Shown here: positions 25,325 through 30,007 of the stretch, in pieces
How the letters are laid out: every line of letters begins with the position of its first letter
Position numbering within the stretch: the first letter of the stretch is position 1
Position numbers and translations under genes: made by a program
Notes under the pieces: generated by a model
What the model was told of the DNA's origin: nothing
The model's input: the letters and a program-made list of their open reading frames with translations, nothing else
Database searches by the model: none
Assembly (NCBI GenBank): GCA_046756865.1
Contig: JBHHXE010000003.1
Span: 1 to 48,089 of the forward strand
Reading direction: 5' to 3'
Length of the DNA stretch: 48,089 nt
From: Nitrospiria bacterium
GTDB lineage: Bacteria; Nitrospirota; Nitrospiria; SBBL01; JAADHI01

Positions 25325-25921
25325 CTAAAAAAACTCGATTATTTTATGGATGGCGTTCTCTATTGTTCTACGTGTTTCTTTCAGGAGTTGTGTTTCGCTG
25401 GTCATCCCGATCATCAAAGCGGTGCCGGTGCCTGACTGGACGCGAATTCCGGTGACCCAGATCGAATCGAATTCAAAGGAAAGAGAACGAATCTTTTGCC
25501 CCTCCATTCCCATTTGACTCCCCTGTTCAAATGCAATCATCAATCTGTTGCCGCAGACTTCTGCTTTGTTGGCAGGCAGCTTCCCCTGGCTTGAAATGGT
25601 CAGACCCACATCATCCATCAGAAAAGCCGTTTCGGCATGGGTGACCTTAAGGCACCAGCCGAGAAATTTTTCCCAGGTATCCGGGCCAAAACTGCTGGTT
25701 TCATTAAGATCGATGTCGAGGTCGGGCAATGCTTGTTCCTGGGGGAGGGGCTCCCTGTTAAAAAAAGGGGCTGCAGAAAACTTAATATATTCAAGGCAAA
25801 CCGTTTGCGAATCTTTTTTGTCTCCAGTGGTTTCTTTGGGGGGATGTTCTCCTCTTAAGCGATGTGTGATCTCTCTCGCGTGCATTAAATCAGAGGAGTT
25901 CACGTTCGGGGTTTTCTGCAT
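25325..25921 (-). CDS. Hypothetical protein, C-terminal half Roadblock/profilin-like (degenerate)
   Basis: AFLMDDVGLTISS resembles ALISEDGLMIAS of the Roadblock gene in the same operon; overlaps ParA end, GAGG SD. Confidence 0.65.
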   Translation of the reverse strand: MQKTPNVNSSDLMHAREITHRLRGEHPPKETTGDKKDSQTVCLEYIKFSAAPFFNREPLPQEQALPDLDIDLNETSSFGPDTWEKFLGWCLKVTHAETAFLMDDVGLTISSQGKLPANKAEVCGNRLMIAFEQGSQMGMEGQKIRSLSFEFDSIWVTGIRVQSGTGTALMIGMTSETQLLKETRRTIENAIHKIIEFF

Positions 25922-26705
25922 TTTTACCTCCTCTGTCTTTCAGGGTACTGAGTAAAGTGCCAATCTCTAAGGCGAGCATTTCAAAACGCCGGGCCTCCGG
26001 CGATACGGGGCCACCCAGGAATGCAACCGGCAAGCCCTTCATGCTCGCTTCGTGGAAAACATCAACTCTTGGAATGACTGTTTCAAAGACACCTTCAAAA
26101 TCAGACCAGATACTTTTTAAAACAGCATAGGGGGTCTCTTTTTTGGTATCGATCATTGTCGGCAGGATACCCAGGAGCATAAGTTTGCTGTTTTCATTAT
26201 CCCGGATATGTTCGATTACGCGGAGGATCTGTGAAATAGAGCGCAAAGCAAGCGGCTCGGCCTGAAACGGTATCAGGACATAATCTGAAACAGCGAGAAC
26301 CGATCGTGTAATCATCCCGATTCCTGAGGGCGTGTCGAGGATGATGAGGTCAAAACGGTCTTTTACTTCGTTGAGGACTTTGTCTAGAACGTCCGGTTGA
26401 TGAATAGCCTGTTCAAATTCAAGAACATCCACTGGATCAAGCCGGCCCCGCGGCAGAATCGAAAGTGTCTTGATTTTTGTCTGGATGATGGCCTGCTCTA
26501 TCGGAGCCTGCCCCATCAGCAGGTCTGTCAAGCCGGCCCACTCGCTGTCCCCCCGGCCAAGTGAAAGCCCGATTCCACCTTGAGGATCCAGGTCAACGAG
26601 CAGCGTGCGCCATCGTTGTTCAGCAAGGGACAAGGCCATGTTCAGGCTCACGGTCGTTTTGCCCACGCCACCCTTCTGGCTGGCTACAGCAATTCGTTCT
26701 GTCAT
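25890..26705 (-). CDS. ParA/MinD family ATPase (orphan)
   Basis: Deviant Walker A QKGGVGKTT, DLDPQG, LDTP, IPFQAEPLA; no parB adjacent. Confidence 0.93.
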   Translation of the reverse strand: MTERIAVASQKGGVGKTTVSLNMALSLAEQRWRTLLVDLDPQGGIGLSLGRGDSEWAGLTDLLMGQAPIEQAIIQTKIKTLSILPRGRLDPVDVLEFEQAIHQPDVLDKVLNEVKDRFDLIILDTPSGIGMITRSVLAVSDYVLIPFQAEPLALRSISQILRVIEHIRDNENSKLMLLGILPTMIDTKKETPYAVLKSIWSDFEGVFETVIPRVDVFHEASMKGLPVAFLGGPVSPEARRFEMLALEIGTLLSTLKDRGGKNAENPERELL

Positions 26706-26721
26706 TTATTGGTCTCCCATC

Positions 26722-27618
26722 TTAGTCATTTTTTTCTTCCTTCTGACCATTTTCATACCCCATTTCGCGCAGGCGGTGAATGTTTGCCTTGATCCCTTTA
26801 TTCCCGGGACAAATTTCTTCCGCCTCAAGAAAGGCCGAAAGTGCCTTAGCATAGTCTTTAATGAGTAAGGCATCAAGACCCCGCTCGGAAGCATTTTGAA
26901 ATTGAATGTTCTGTTTTACTTCAGAATCAGGCTCCGAATCGCATCTGCTTTTTTCGTCTTCCTGCCGGGCACCCTCCATCAATAGGGCTTCCCAGGATTC
27001 CTCAATATTACGTTCACCCGGTTTTCCCTGGAGCGCCTGACAGACTACTCGATTTTTACTGCAACGGACGAGCCGGTAAAAGGCATCTAATCCCACCCCT
27101 TCCCGGTCTGAGGCAGACCAGACATCTCCGGTCATTACGACGATCTTTCCAATGGGGTTTCCCTCATGCTCGACCCCGATCACGACAGAGTGCCGGCCAA
27201 TGCAGGAGAGCTGGATATATTCTGAGACACGAAACGGGGTAATTTCGGAAGGACGCTTTTCTTTTCCAACATGTTTTAGAACAATATGACGTAATTCTCC
27301 CAGTGATACCGGTTTTTCATGGACTTCCACATTGGCATGTGAGGGAATCTGCGGCTGGTAGGACTTGAGGAATGCGGTGATAAAAACGACAGGAATTTCC
27401 AGCTTGCGCCTTTCAATCTCTCCCAGTAATTCCACCCCGGACCGGTCTGGCAGGTCGAGGTCTGAGAGGATCAGTTGCGGTGGGTCAGCATCAATTTCAT
27501 GCAAGGCGTCCGCAAGCGTTCCCGCATCACTTACTTCGATGTCCGGGAGCTTTGAGAGCCCACGGATCATGGTTGAGCGAAGCATGGCCTCGTCTTCTAT
27601 AATGAGGATGCGTGGCAT
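26722..27618 (-). CDS. Response regulator REC + DUF4388/PATAN-like + TPR
   Basis: IIEDE, LSDLDLPD, FITA, EKP; central FRVSEYIQL...GKIVVMTGDV.SA...GLDAFYRL; C-terminal single TPR-like pair. Confidence 0.85.
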   Translation of the reverse strand: MPRILIIEDEAMLRSTMIRGLSKLPDIEVSDAGTLADALHEIDADPPQLILSDLDLPDRSGVELLGEIERRKLEIPVVFITAFLKSYQPQIPSHANVEVHEKPVSLGELRHIVLKHVGKEKRPSEITPFRVSEYIQLSCIGRHSVVIGVEHEGNPIGKIVVMTGDVWSASDREGVGLDAFYRLVRCSKNRVVCQALQGKPGERNIEESWEALLMEGARQEDEKSRCDSEPDSEVKQNIQFQNASERGLDALLIKDYAKALSAFLEAEEICPGNKGIKANIHRLREMGYENGQKEEKND

Positions 27619-27627
27619 AATAAAGGC

Positions 27628-28395: not shown

Positions 28396-28456
28396 ATCGT
28401 TTTCTCCTTTAAAAATAGAACGCACTTCAAACGCCGTGACTAAAAATCTATGGCGG

Positions 28457-28822
28457 TTACAAAATCTTTTTGATCTCCGCCACTGCCCGATTCATATCAA
28501 GGAAAATAAGTCCCAGTTTGGCATCGGGGGTGGTCAATACCAGCAGCATCGTTCCTTCAGTTGCCTTCAGCATCACGGCGTAACCCTTCTCACCACGAAT
28601 CAGCACCTGGCCGAGTTTCCCAAGATCAAGTTCGCTCGTTGCACGGCTACCGAGGCTGAGTAAGGTTGCAGACATGCCGGCAACACGCATCTCTTCGATA
28701 TGCTGGGGAAGCGCACTGGCAATCATCAGACCGTCTTCAGATATCAATGCGCTCGCTTCAATGTCCGGGCTTTCACGTTGAAGGGTTTTCAGGGTTGTAT
28801 TCAGGTCGTCGCTACGTGCCAT
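28457..28822 (-). CDS. Roadblock/LC7 (MglB-like) protein
   Basis: IEASALISEDGLMIASAL...VAGMSATLLSLG...GEKGY...AKLGLIFLDM; AAGGAGG SD. Confidence 0.93.
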   Translation of the reverse strand: MARSDDLNTTLKTLQRESPDIEASALISEDGLMIASALPQHIEEMRVAGMSATLLSLGSRATSELDLGKLGQVLIRGEKGYAVMLKATEGTMLLVLTTPDAKLGLIFLDMNRAVAEIKKIL

Positions 28823-28882
28823 TATAGTGCCTCCTTTATGATCGATAAGAATTTAAGATCTATCGCTCTATTACAATAAGCT

Positions 28883-30007
28883 TTACCCTGAAACCAGATT
28901 TTGGGGTGAGCCAAAGTTGTCAGAAACCCGTGTGGGGATCGATACGGTTACTTTTGTTCCTGAATTTTCTCTCGACTCGATCAGAAAGGTTCCTCCGGCT
29001 TCATCGATCGTATTTTTGCACATACTCAAGCCAATTCCGCTGCCGCTTGGTTTTGTCGAAACGAAGAGGTCGGTGCAGTTCGACAGGATAGACTCGTTCA
29101 TCCCGCAGCCGGTATCTGAAACGACCATCTCGAGGAGGTCGCCCTCATTTTTCAAGCGTGCAGTCAACGTAATTTTATTTCCGGGGCGGCATGCATCTAC
29201 CGCATTGGAAACCAGGTTAAAGAGAATTGCCCGAATGACCGCTGTTTCAAGCGGAAGGAGCGGCATTTGCCAGATTTCACTGGTCAGTTGGACCTCTGCC
29301 CGCTTTGCCTTGGCCTTCAGAACCAAAAGGGCCTCCTGAATTGCAAGGTCAACGGCCATAAATCGTGATGTGCGCAATGCGCGCTGTGTCGATCCAATGC
29401 CCTCAAAAATAAGTTTCATTCTTCGGATTTCACTGAGTATGGCATACAGCGCTTCCTGGGTTTCCTCTTTTTCCACCTCCTCCACGAGCACCTCCACAGC
29501 CGTTGTAATCGCGGCAAGTGGATTTTTAAGTTCATGGAGAATCGTTGGTAAAACCTGCCCGACGGTCGCAATCTGATGCAGACGGTCCCGTTCCTTTAAA
29601 AGGAGGTTCAAGCGGGTAATGTCCTGAAACGTGACCGCATACTGGCGGCCACTGAATAAATTGTCAGGATTATCAACTTCAGAGACACAAAACCCGATCG
29701 TCACCTCCCCACCATCCGGAAGCCTGACGTCCAACTCTCTTCGCGCTTCTTTTTCGGGGATCTGACAAAGGTCTTCCAATCGAAATTGGAGGGATTCAAT
29801 CTTCAACTTTTCAAGGTCTTCGATTGGCCGTTTAAGAATATTTGAGGCATGCCGGTTTGCGAACAGGATCTCGCCTGTCTCACTGGAGACGAGTACGCCC
29901 GTTTTGAGAGATTGAAGGATCAGGCTGGCGTAGCTGTCTGCCCCGGGCTGCTCGGTGTTTTTGGAATCCGCCTTATTCGAACCGGCATTTATGGGTTTGG
30001 AAATCAT
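28883..30007 (-). CDS. Cytoplasmic PAS-domain sensor histidine kinase
   Basis: PAS (GEILFAN...FQDIT), H-box LHELKNPL, N-box NLVSNAVDA, DTGCG, GSGIGL; no TM. Confidence 0.93.
   Translation of the reverse strand: MISKPINAGSNKADSKNTEQPGADSYASLILQSLKTGVLVSSETGEILFANRHASNILKRPIEDLEKLKIESLQFRLEDLCQIPEKEARRELDVRLPDGGEVTIGFCVSEVDNPDNLFSGRQYAVTFQDITRLNLLLKERDRLHQIATVGQVLPTILHELKNPLAAITTAVEVLVEEVEKEETQEALYAILSEIRRMKLIFEGIGSTQRALRTSRFMAVDLAIQEALLVLKAKAKRAEVQLTSEIWQMPLLPLETAVIRAILFNLVSNAVDACRPGNKITLTARLKNEGDLLEMVVSDTGCGMNESILSNCTDLFVSTKPSGSGIGLSMCKNTIDEAGGTFLIESRENSGTKVTVSIPTRVSDNFGSPQNLVSG

Follow-up and report, generated by a model that had tools for sequence, protein, structure and literature searches.

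A conserved and apparently undescribed six-gene cassette combining a ParA-class ATPase with Roadblock-fold proteins, an ODP, and a two-component system

Gene content and layout of the cassette

The DNA considered here is a stretch of 48,089 nucleotides from a Nitrospiria bacterium (contig JBHHXE010000003.1 of GenBank assembly GCA_046756865.1, positions 1 to 48,089 of the forward strand; hereafter called the window), which carries a tightly packed block of six genes on its minus strand. In the direction of transcription they encode a histidine kinase (HK), a small Roadblock/LC7 protein, an ODP, a response regulator (RR) with a REC and a DUF4388 (PATAN) domain, an orphan ATPase of the ParA/MinD class, and a protein called ORF6 (Table 1). 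The six genes form a conserved, apparently undescribed module. What is chiefly new about it is that a ParA-class ATPase has a Roadblock-fold partner, combined with a dedicated input from an ODP and a two-component system. A prediction previously made from the letters of the window alone (the original prediction) had described six co-oriented and tightly spaced genes at positions 25325-30007, whose products all appear to be cytoplasmic and among which a GTPase is lacking. All of this is confirmed: the open reading frames (ORFs), their spacings, and the domain calls hold, none of the six proteins contains a GTPase domain (Pfam), and no 19-residue segment reaches a Kyte-Doolittle value of 1.6 (maximum 1.54), in agreement with six soluble proteins.

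Table 1. Genes and other features of the cassette (positions in the window)
Feature	Position	Strand	Length and evidence
Histidine kinase (HK)	28883-30007	-	374 aa; first gene of the operon; HATPase_c 5.6e-20, HisKA 2.5e-10 (Pfam)
Roadblock/LC7 protein	28457-28822	-	121 aa; Robl_LC7 1.6e-14 (Pfam)
ODP (oxygen-binding di-iron protein family, metallo-beta-lactamase fold)	27628-28395	-	255 aa; Pfam ODP 1.5e-66
REC-DUF4388 (PATAN) response regulator (RR)	26722-27618	-	298 aa; Response_reg 3.7e-15, DUF4388 6.6e-06 (Pfam)
Orphan ParA/Soj-type (ParA/MinD class) deviant-Walker-A ATPase	25890-26705	-	271 aa; AAA_31 2e-40, CbiA 1.2e-20 (Pfam)
ORF6, divergent Roadblock-fold protein	25325-25921	-	198 aa; no Pfam or NCBIfam family; fold from model
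Overlap of the ParA stop region and the ORF6 start	25890-25921	-	32 nt; sequence
Cassette boundaries as seen against two cassette-free genomes of the same genus	25296-30166	.	nucleotide comparison

From the HK gene to ORF6, the spacings are 60, 61, 9, and 16 nt, followed by the 32-nt overlap. As the start of the ODP gene we took the ATG at 28395, which is preceded by an AGGAG and agrees with the N-termini of solved ODPs; the longest ORF of this gene begins at a GTG at 28425, 30 nt upstream, which would shorten the spacing of 61 nt to 31 nt. The block is flanked on both sides by genes on the opposite strand: a DUF4412 gene converges on it and ends at 25295, and a Peptidase_M23 gene, itself followed by SecA, diverges from it with its start at 30324. 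A scan for promoters and terminators was uninformative on the limits of the operon (counts of 6 vs 5.2 and 3 vs 7.3 in shuffled sequence), Rfam gave zero matches between positions 23300 and 31000 of the window, and the GC content of the cassette is unremarkable.

The ATPase and its Roadblock-fold partner

The ATPase clearly belongs to the ParA/MinD family, with 139 bits against the AAA_31 profile (cut-off 27). Its motifs are intact: K11, G12, G13, G15, K16, and T17 of the SQKGGVGKTT stretch as well as D38, D40, and D124 are invariant in 23 orthologues. The best match in the PDB is the chromosomal ParA of Myxococcus xanthus (8ray, 3.3e-34), and Soj-type proteins rank above MinD. Another parA gene, 33% identical to that of the cassette, lies beside parB on contig 68 of the same genome. 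ParB_N matches were found on contigs 68 and 152 and none in the operon (Pfam). Since a separate parA accompanies parB, the ParA of the cassette is an extra, ParB-less copy.

ParA and ORF6 are closely tied at the level of their genes. The C-terminal tail of ParA (R..ER.LL) is nearly invariant, and the overlap encodes both the ERELL of this tail and the conserved start of ORF6 (N-V-N-S-S-D) in different frames. Overlaps of 29-41 nt between the two genes recur in orthologous loci, including those of other phyla. A word-index protein search with ORF6 returned only ORF6 itself. With an exhaustive phmmer search of 1.84 billion representatives, 293 relatives were found at E ≤ 0.001, of which 106 lie at E ≤ 1e-10. 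Most of these are about 190 aa long, and forms of about 400-460 aa carry the ORF6 region at their C-terminus. Ten of the long forms were scanned: nine contain a full N-terminal ParA-type ATPase domain and one a sub-threshold remnant of it, and in four of the ten the ORF6 part itself gave sub-threshold Robl_LC7 matches. An alignment of 60 sequences shows that ORF6 is built from an N-terminal helix motif (approximately SSDL..AR..S.RL, then Y.RF.A), a variable linker, and a conserved C-terminal domain.

The original prediction had called ORF6 Roadblock-like, a view that is borne out by the fold and not by the sequence. A profile built from the ORF6 alignment gave 12 matches in the PDB at E values of 0.18-1, each insignificant when taken singly; all 12 are Roadblock-fold proteins (LAMTOR5/HBXIP, CvnB5, and MglB). 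In the AlphaFold2 model of ORF6 (mean pLDDT 86.5, pTM 0.69), residues ~78-198 show the helix and strand order of Roadblock domains (α-β-β-α-β-β-β-α). Foldseek matched this model best to MglB chains, including some from the MglA-MglB complex (E 1.9e-06 to 1e-05, probability 1.00, TM by target 0.6-0.7), and further matches are other Roadblock, LAMTOR, and Rag C-terminal domains. Look-alike clusters in the ESM Atlas come mainly from Myxococcota and Verrucomicrobiota, and one of them carries an automatic name as a Roadblock/LC7 family. The modeled fold thus places ORF6 among the Roadblock proteins, as a divergent member with an N-terminal extension.

A complex of two ParA copies and ORF6 was also predicted, this being the pair for which the multimer modeling proposed with the original prediction was run. 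It scored 0.60 (runs 0.61, 0.60, and 0.39), with 0.00 for the best of three controls; the runs share at least 70% of their contacts, and the partner pLDDT is at least 67. For calibration, 80 solved complexes and 110 mismatched pairs had been scored, of which 58 and two, respectively, reached the mark; scores of at most 0.60 among these belonged to only seven of the 80 solved complexes and to both passing mismatches. The ParA and ORF6 prediction used its own alignments and two ParA copies, unlike the calibration, and amounts to weak support for the pairing. Because the fusions and the overlap of the genes had already made the pairing likely, the modeled complex adds modestly to its support. In ParA and MinD systems, N-terminal peptides of partner proteins such as ParB and MinE bind the dimer interface of the ATPase and stimulate its activity or trigger hydrolysis, according to the available text of PMC12462528. 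By analogy, the arginine-containing N-terminal helix of ORF6 is a candidate for the element that contacts ParA.

The two-component proteins, the ODP, and the small Roadblock protein

The kinase and the regulator together fit the definition of a two-component system, with the H-box histidine, the REC aspartate, and the N and G boxes all in place in their sequences. Among 19 kinase orthologues, at least 90% retain the H-box (LHELKNPLAA) together with the N-box and G boxes. The N-terminus of the kinase is PAS-like, with a PAS match below the Pfam cut-off (21.1 bits vs 27), and hydropathy reveals no segment resembling a transmembrane helix. The regulator consists of a REC domain (residues 4-112), a DUF4388 domain (residues 128-223; 26.6 bits vs a cut-off of 25), and a conserved helical tail (residues ~230-298), which has no match in Pfam and is TPR-like by residue pattern only. 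The acidic pocket of the REC domain, the aspartate of its SD.DLP motif, and the lysine of EKPV are conserved across 20 orthologues. In cyanobacteria, PATAN is described as an output domain that binds PilB1, an ATPase, and PilC (available text of bioRxiv 10.1101/2021.06.11.447907).

The ODP matches its Pfam family (PF19583) with 224.5 bits vs a cut-off of 27.2 and, in addition, Lactamase_B (5e-21). It aligns over its full length with two solved ODPs (6qrq, 5.2e-65, and 6qnm, 6.3e-58). The stretches HQDPD, PAHFLHS, GD(L/I)G, and PQHG align with both structures and are kept in at least 90% of 25 orthologues. We take these stretches to hold the iron ligands, following the pattern of metallo-β-lactamases and flavodiiron proteins. 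Muok et al. (2019) noted that ODPs have been recruited to various signal transduction operons, as cited in the available part of the TREND paper (PMC7319448).

Of the six components, the small Roadblock protein is conserved best. Its mean column identity is 83% among 18 sequences from two phyla, which suggests that it has several binding partners. Its best PDB match is 7f8m (2.4e-28), followed by Roadblock proteins from Asgard archaea and CvnB5 (6.9e-09); MglB is absent from its matches at E ≤ 0.01. Sequence comparison with the genome's own MglB gave 23% identity at an E value of 0.011, and the protein is not an MglB orthologue on these figures. The Roadblock gene adjoins the ODP gene in 14 of 18 loci with the complete gene set (see below), in one locus without kinase and regulator (L054), and in a separate pair in the related genome G010. 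The pair in G010 (L074, contig C20, 11612-12829 in the locus) encodes a Roadblock protein (39% identity) and an ODP (56%). It lies at the end of its contig, and neither ParA nor ORF6 follows it. Roadblock and ODP may be a submodule of their own. Separately, structure matches in the ESM Atlas include clusters, mostly from Chloroflexota, that hold Response_reg and Robl_LC7 in one protein, and fusions of REC with MglB-like domains are recorded in the available part of PMC4316618. Roadblock domains that are wired directly to phosphorelays seem to be common and little studied.

Conservation across genomes

In total, 31 loci were examined: the window, the cassette locus of G012, nine loci from a scan of one genome per species with a narrow ORF6 alignment (eight Myxococcota metagenome-assembled genomes [MAGs] and one Planctomycetota MAG), and 20 from a profile scan of Myxococcota. 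In the latter, 24 of 401 genomes matched, and 20 regions were taken up while the weaker G830, G682, G738, and G668:C68 were left out; the same applies to weak matches in Planctomycetota (G988, G1025, and G1055). The counts of the phylum scans (24/401, 7/401, and 1/401) are lower bounds, with eight first-look candidates scored per genome.

All six families occur together in 18 of the 31 loci, namely the window, G012, and 16 loci of Myxococcota. The recurrence in 17 other loci means that the arrangement is not a chance juxtaposition. The order of the window (HK-Roadblock-ODP-RR-ParA-ORF6) is found in 11 of the 18, one of which (L018) has a second ODP gene after ORF6, whereas four loci of Polyangiaceae have the order HK-Roadblock-RR-ParA-ORF6-ODP, two the order HK-ODP-Roadblock-ODP-RR-ParA-ORF6, and one the order HK-ODP-RR-ParA-ORF6-Roadblock-ODP. 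ParA adjoins an ORF6-family gene or is fused with it in 27 of the 31 loci. In each of the 18 full modules, the gene immediately before that of ParA encodes the regulator, and in the planctomycete locus L016 the regulator gene is followed by a ParA::ORF6 fusion. Thus the gene set is conserved as a unit, a point on which the original prediction had been prepared to fail if the gene order did not recur elsewhere.

The remaining loci are less complete. Four are cut by contig ends (L012, L016, L060, and L067), one has Roadblock, ODP, ParA, and ORF6 without kinase and regulator (L054), and five contain the ParA-ORF6 pair alone (L049, L059, L061, L062, and L063). In addition, one locus holds a distant ParA with a weak ORF6-like match ~800 nt away (L064), one a weak ORF6-like match alone (L065), and one a decayed second copy with a kinase and fragments of ODP and ORF6 (L066). 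In L066 (G762:C6, ~9800-11700 in the locus), the ORF6-like gene is split over two frames; the same myxobacterial genome also holds an intact copy of the cassette (L053). The neighbors of the pair-only and planctomycete loci are unrelated genes, such as those for YidC, peptidase S9, a glycosyl hydrolase, a Lon-like protease, and an aromatic amino-acid hydroxylase, with kinases at some distance, and they include no candidate for a cargo. When all ORFs of the flanks were clustered against each other, no further family was present in more than five loci, and the few loci that share one are close relatives.

Compared with the window, identities in Myxococcota range from 62-74% for Roadblock, 53-65% for ODP, and 50-59% for ParA to 38-54% for RR, 33-43% for HK, and 27-37% for ORF6. 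G012, which belongs to another genus of the same family, has the six genes in the same order, with identities of 69% (HK), 92% (Roadblock), 81% (ODP), 66% (RR), 76% (ParA), and 45% (ORF6). The ORF6 family is rare in the lineage of the window, being present in two of 41 relatives (including the window's own genome) and in at least one of 401 genomes sampled from the phylum.

Gain or loss as one block and surroundings of the cassette

Two genomes of the same genus (G001 and G002) have collinear flanks with ~80% nucleotide identity over the 13.2 kb compared and lack a block of 4.9 kb, which corresponds exactly to the six genes together with the region upstream of them. The flanks of G001 match the window up to position 25294 and again from 30167 onward, and 23 nt separate the two parts in G001; for G002, the matching parts end at 25276 and begin again at 30166, with 140 nt separating them. 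In G012, the cassette and the homologues of the genes that flank it in the window are on separate contigs. No direct repeats or mobility genes were seen at the junctions. Taken together, the missing block, the other location in G012, the sporadic distribution, and the identity of 50-74% to the Roadblock, ODP, and ParA proteins of Myxococcota point to the six genes having been transferred or lost together in one block.

Some further features were noted around the cassette. A gene for a GAF-GGDEF diguanylate cyclase (34743-35864, plus strand) lies directly after secA. On the other side, a dispersed repeat of ~110-140 bp is found at 23485-23616, between a Macro-domain gene (22994-23488) and an ORF (23662-24606). 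It has 20 matches at E ≤ 1e-8 in the same genome and ~40 or more in each of the same-genus genomes (74-86% identity), it folds at the level of shuffled sequence (z 0.02), and it has no Rfam match. A reading of the cassette as a defense system was dropped: PADLOC gives only short partial matches to candidate models, which fall on the REC and P-loop regions (24 and 30 bits; residues 3-58 and 2-66).

Proposed mechanism

Our reading is that the cassette encodes a cytoplasmic signaling chain that ends in a nucleotide switch, in which a ParA ATPase would be governed by Roadblock proteins in place of a small GTPase. We put its probability at roughly one half. In such a chain, the ODP would report the O2 or Fe(II) status to the PAS kinase, as chemotaxis ODPs do to the receptor/CheA complex, and the signal could pass through the very conserved Roadblock protein that usually adjoins the ODP. 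The kinase would phosphorylate the REC-PATAN regulator, whose PATAN output domain would then act on the ParA/ORF6 pair. For ParA, the role that ParB, MinE, or MglB plays elsewhere would fall to ORF6, which may pair with the small Roadblock protein in a heterodimer. By binding to the dimer of ParA, perhaps with its conserved N-terminal helix, ORF6 would set the pace of the ATPase cycle. Finally, the ATP-dependent cycle of ParA between dimer and monomer would determine where, or whether, a target is active. Confidence in these proposed steps falls from the ParA-ORF6 pair through the relay from kinase to regulator to ParA/ORF6 and the signal from ODP to kinase to the spatial output.

By analogy, the likeliest output is positioning or polarity, because ParA/MinD ATPases are known for spatial roles. 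More tentatively, and with a probability that we would place somewhat below that of the chain as such, the two Roadblock proteins may be a dedicated regulator and adaptor of the ParA/MinD-class ATPase, so that Roadblock proteins would serve more than small GTPases, and the cassette would hold a bacterial counterpart of Rag-Ragulator based on another NTPase, in which case the cassette might be a self-organizing positioning or polarity switch that is gated by O2 or Fe(II) and is spreading between phyla.

Several points weigh against this chain. No cargo, no membrane-targeting or DNA-binding element, and no conserved neighbor that hints at an output was found with the cassette. The sensory half appears to be dispensable for the core pair, given the six loci that hold only ParA and an ORF6-family gene (L064 loosely so) and the locus L054 that lacks kinase and regulator. 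ORF6-like domains also occur where no ParA is detectable, both in the weak and decayed Myxococcota loci L065 and L066 and in all three further Planctomycetota loci that encode more distant ORF6-like proteins, where no ParA match lies within ~9 kb. The heterodimer of ORF6 and the small Roadblock protein is a guess, and a profile comparison of the two families was weak (hhalign E 0.0097, probability 4%). Likewise, the predicted complex of ParA and ORF6 came with no reported interface, and the role of the ODP in sensing O2 or Fe is extrapolated from two chemotaxis ODPs. Lastly, MglA is present in every module-bearing genome tested (see below), which makes it possible that the cassette acts through MglA.

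Alternative explanations

The last of these points leads to the alternative that survives best, although we regard it as unlikely: the cassette could be an accessory input to the resident machinery of MglA/MglB and type IV pilus polarity, in which its Roadblock proteins would act in trans on MglA or MglB, like MglC of Myxococcus, PATAN would act on a PilB-type motor, and ParA would do no more than localize the complex, with O2 or Fe biasing polarity or reversals. The original prediction had recommended a search for mglA in the rest of the genome. While there is none in the operon, a canonical mglB-mglA pair was located beside the second Roadblock match on contig 24 (L001, 647-1234 and 1327-1827, both on the minus strand), where a gene for a 166-aa Roadblock protein is followed by one for a 195-aa MglA (E 1.3e-97 to MglA of M. 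xanthus). A genome scan with the Pfam Ras profile had missed this MglA (21 bits vs Ras, 33 vs Arf) and found only long ORFs resembling translation factors. The genome further encodes three PATAN proteins besides that of the cassette, as well as five PilB-like and two PilT-like ATPases, and MglA is likewise present in G012 and in five of five other module-bearing genomes tested in addition to the window's own (G000). That PATAN binds PilB1 and PilC and that genes of MglA and MglB are often near PATAN genes, as stated in the accessible portions of PMC4316618 and bioRxiv 10.1101/2021.06.11.447907, would also be in line with an accessory role.

This co-occurrence says little, however, because 30 of 41 relatives have MglA, and among them are the two same-genus genomes that lack the cassette. 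The cassette is therefore not needed for MglA, and it may or may not be independent of it. With the genome's own MglA as query and flanks of up to 10 kb, no MglA-like match was obtained in or beside any of the 18 full modules. Homologous operons with an MglA-like GTPase, which would have undermined the original prediction, were thus not encountered among them. The only MglA-like match lies beside an MglB-like gene in the pair-only locus L049 (G700:C3), ~9 kb from ParA and ORF6, and speaks for an accessory role. In this locus, ParA occupies 8239-9054, the ORF6-like gene 9026-9625, and the MglB-like gene 18364-18855, and sensory genes are absent. Furthermore, the low identity between the small Roadblock protein and the resident MglB, as well as the fusion of ORF6 with ParA and not with a GTPase, argue against a function of the cassette's Roadblock proteins on MglA/MglB.

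Somewhat less probable again is a conservon-like switch with a non-spatial output, in which ParA would replace the Ras-like CvnD in a complex of kinase and Roadblock protein and tune the kinase or a downstream enzyme or regulator. The operon opens with a kinase and then a Roadblock gene as conservons do in the sources available to us, the small Roadblock protein matches CvnB5 in the PDB, and no cargo gene is conserved. Against these similarities stand the absence of CvnC (DUF742) and of a GTPase, and the kinase is a soluble PAS-type protein, not the membrane HAMP kinase with an LPxR tail that those sources describe. The spatial roles of the known ParA/MinD ATPases also speak against such a switch.

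The membership of the ODP in the metallo-β-lactamase superfamily allows for a different reading, in which the ODP is an enzyme (e.g., for peroxide or O2 detoxification, or a hydrolase) and the operon belongs to an oxidative-stress or iron-homeostasis response that the regulators merely accompany. We consider this improbable. In its favor, the position of the ODP gene also varies and some loci have two copies. Against it, the protein is 53-65% identical across phyla, never parts from the other five in the 18 full modules, and has two sensor ODPs as its closest solved relatives; the enzyme reading would also leave unexplained why ParA and Roadblock proteins are inherited together with a detoxifying enzyme. 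The idea that the six genes are chance neighbors, or that ORF6 is not a gene (it lacks a Pfam or NCBIfam match and found only itself in the word-index search), is already refuted by its 293 relatives, its confident fold, its fusions with ParA, and the 18 loci with all six families.

A signaling chain that ends in a ParA/Roadblock switch thus remains our preferred reading, and the original prediction is upheld in part. It had proposed a self-contained switch that links O2/Fe(II) sensing and phosphorelay to localization or polarity. Composition and conservation stand; self-containment is not established, as mglB-mglA and parA-parB pairs exist elsewhere in the genome, and positioning becomes one of several conceivable outputs because no cargo gene is conserved nearby.

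Bacteria organize their interior in two main ways, by ParA/MinD ATPases and by Roadblock-regulated GTPases, and the cassette joins parts of both and adds an ODP sensor and a phosphorelay. If the proposed chain is correct, ORF6 would represent a new class of ParA partner proteins and the cassette would provide the first NTPase partner for one class of orphan MglB-like proteins, an ODP signaling route outside chemotaxis, and a compact six-gene system in which an O2 or Fe signal can be traced to a spatial or switch-like output. Moreover, the cassette is small, its proteins are apparently soluble, and it is present in Myxococcota, a phylum with genetically tractable members.

Comparison with known systems

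The original prediction had stated that no characterized system of this composition was known. In line with this, our search of the full-text literature, with supplementary tables and the primary ODP paper outside its reach, returned no description of a ParA with a Roadblock partner or of this gene set. A survey from 2014 counted 328 of 749 MglB homologues as uncoupled from MglA, none of them characterized at that time, and its available text does not mention ParA/MinD (PMC4316618). The systems closest to the cassette each have a defining feature that it lacks.

The polarity module of MglA/MglB (with MglC and RomR/RomX) resembles the cassette in that a Roadblock-fold protein is paired with a P-loop NTPase, that a response regulator provides input, and that, according to the accessible part of the literature cited above, PATAN proteins are often encoded nearby. 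MglC has been studied since 2014 and acts in trans on MglA/MglB in Myxococcus. The cassette differs in that its NTPase is a deviant-Walker-A ATPase of the ParA/MinD class and not a Ras-like GTPase, and no MglA-family GTPase is encoded within a few genes of its Roadblock protein.

The conservons of actinobacteria (CvnA-D) consist of a membrane HK, a Roadblock protein, CvnC (DUF742), and a Ras-like GTPase (accessible text of PMC13343842, PMC13621833, and PMC4316618). Like the cassette, they open with a kinase followed by a Roadblock protein, end in an NTPase, and are inherited as cassettes. The HK and Roadblock classes are the only ones shared, and the cassette contains in addition an ODP, a REC-PATAN regulator, and a second Roadblock protein.

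With ParA/MinD systems that have a dedicated partner (ParB, MinE, or another adaptor protein), the cassette shares an orphan ParA with intact motifs, a small partner gene that lies directly downstream and is translationally coupled, and an N-terminal conserved helix with arginines in that partner, a type of element that stimulates ParA ATPases in the source cited above. Unlike in these systems, the partner has a Roadblock fold, a two-component system and an ODP are attached, and there is no recognizable cargo; neither ParB nor parS accompanies the cassette, which sets it apart from ParABS.

The ODPs of Treponema denticola and Thermotoga maritima, which function in chemoreceptor-based sensing of O2 and Fe(II), are orthologous to that of the cassette and have the same conserved metal-site stretches. 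The cassette has no chemoreceptor, CheA, or CheW, and the presumed receiver of the signal would be the PAS kinase and/or the Roadblock protein. The regulator, in turn, combines REC with DUF4388/PATAN as do the PatA-type regulators (PixG, PixE, and PatA), in which PATAN is an ATPase-binding output domain as far as the available text covers it. Here, the domain order is REC-PATAN as opposed to PATAN-REC, an extra helical tail is present, and the partner gene is parA and not pilB.

Finally, the Rag GTPases of eukaryotes contain an NTPase domain and a C-terminal Roadblock domain and work together with small Roadblock proteins (Ragulator). They belong to another NTPase class, with no homology shown beyond the Roadblock fold, and the parallel is one of architecture only: an NTPase followed by a C-terminal Roadblock domain is also the layout of the ParA::ORF6 fusions, and LAMTOR as well as RagA and RagC chains are among the Foldseek and profile matches of ORF6.

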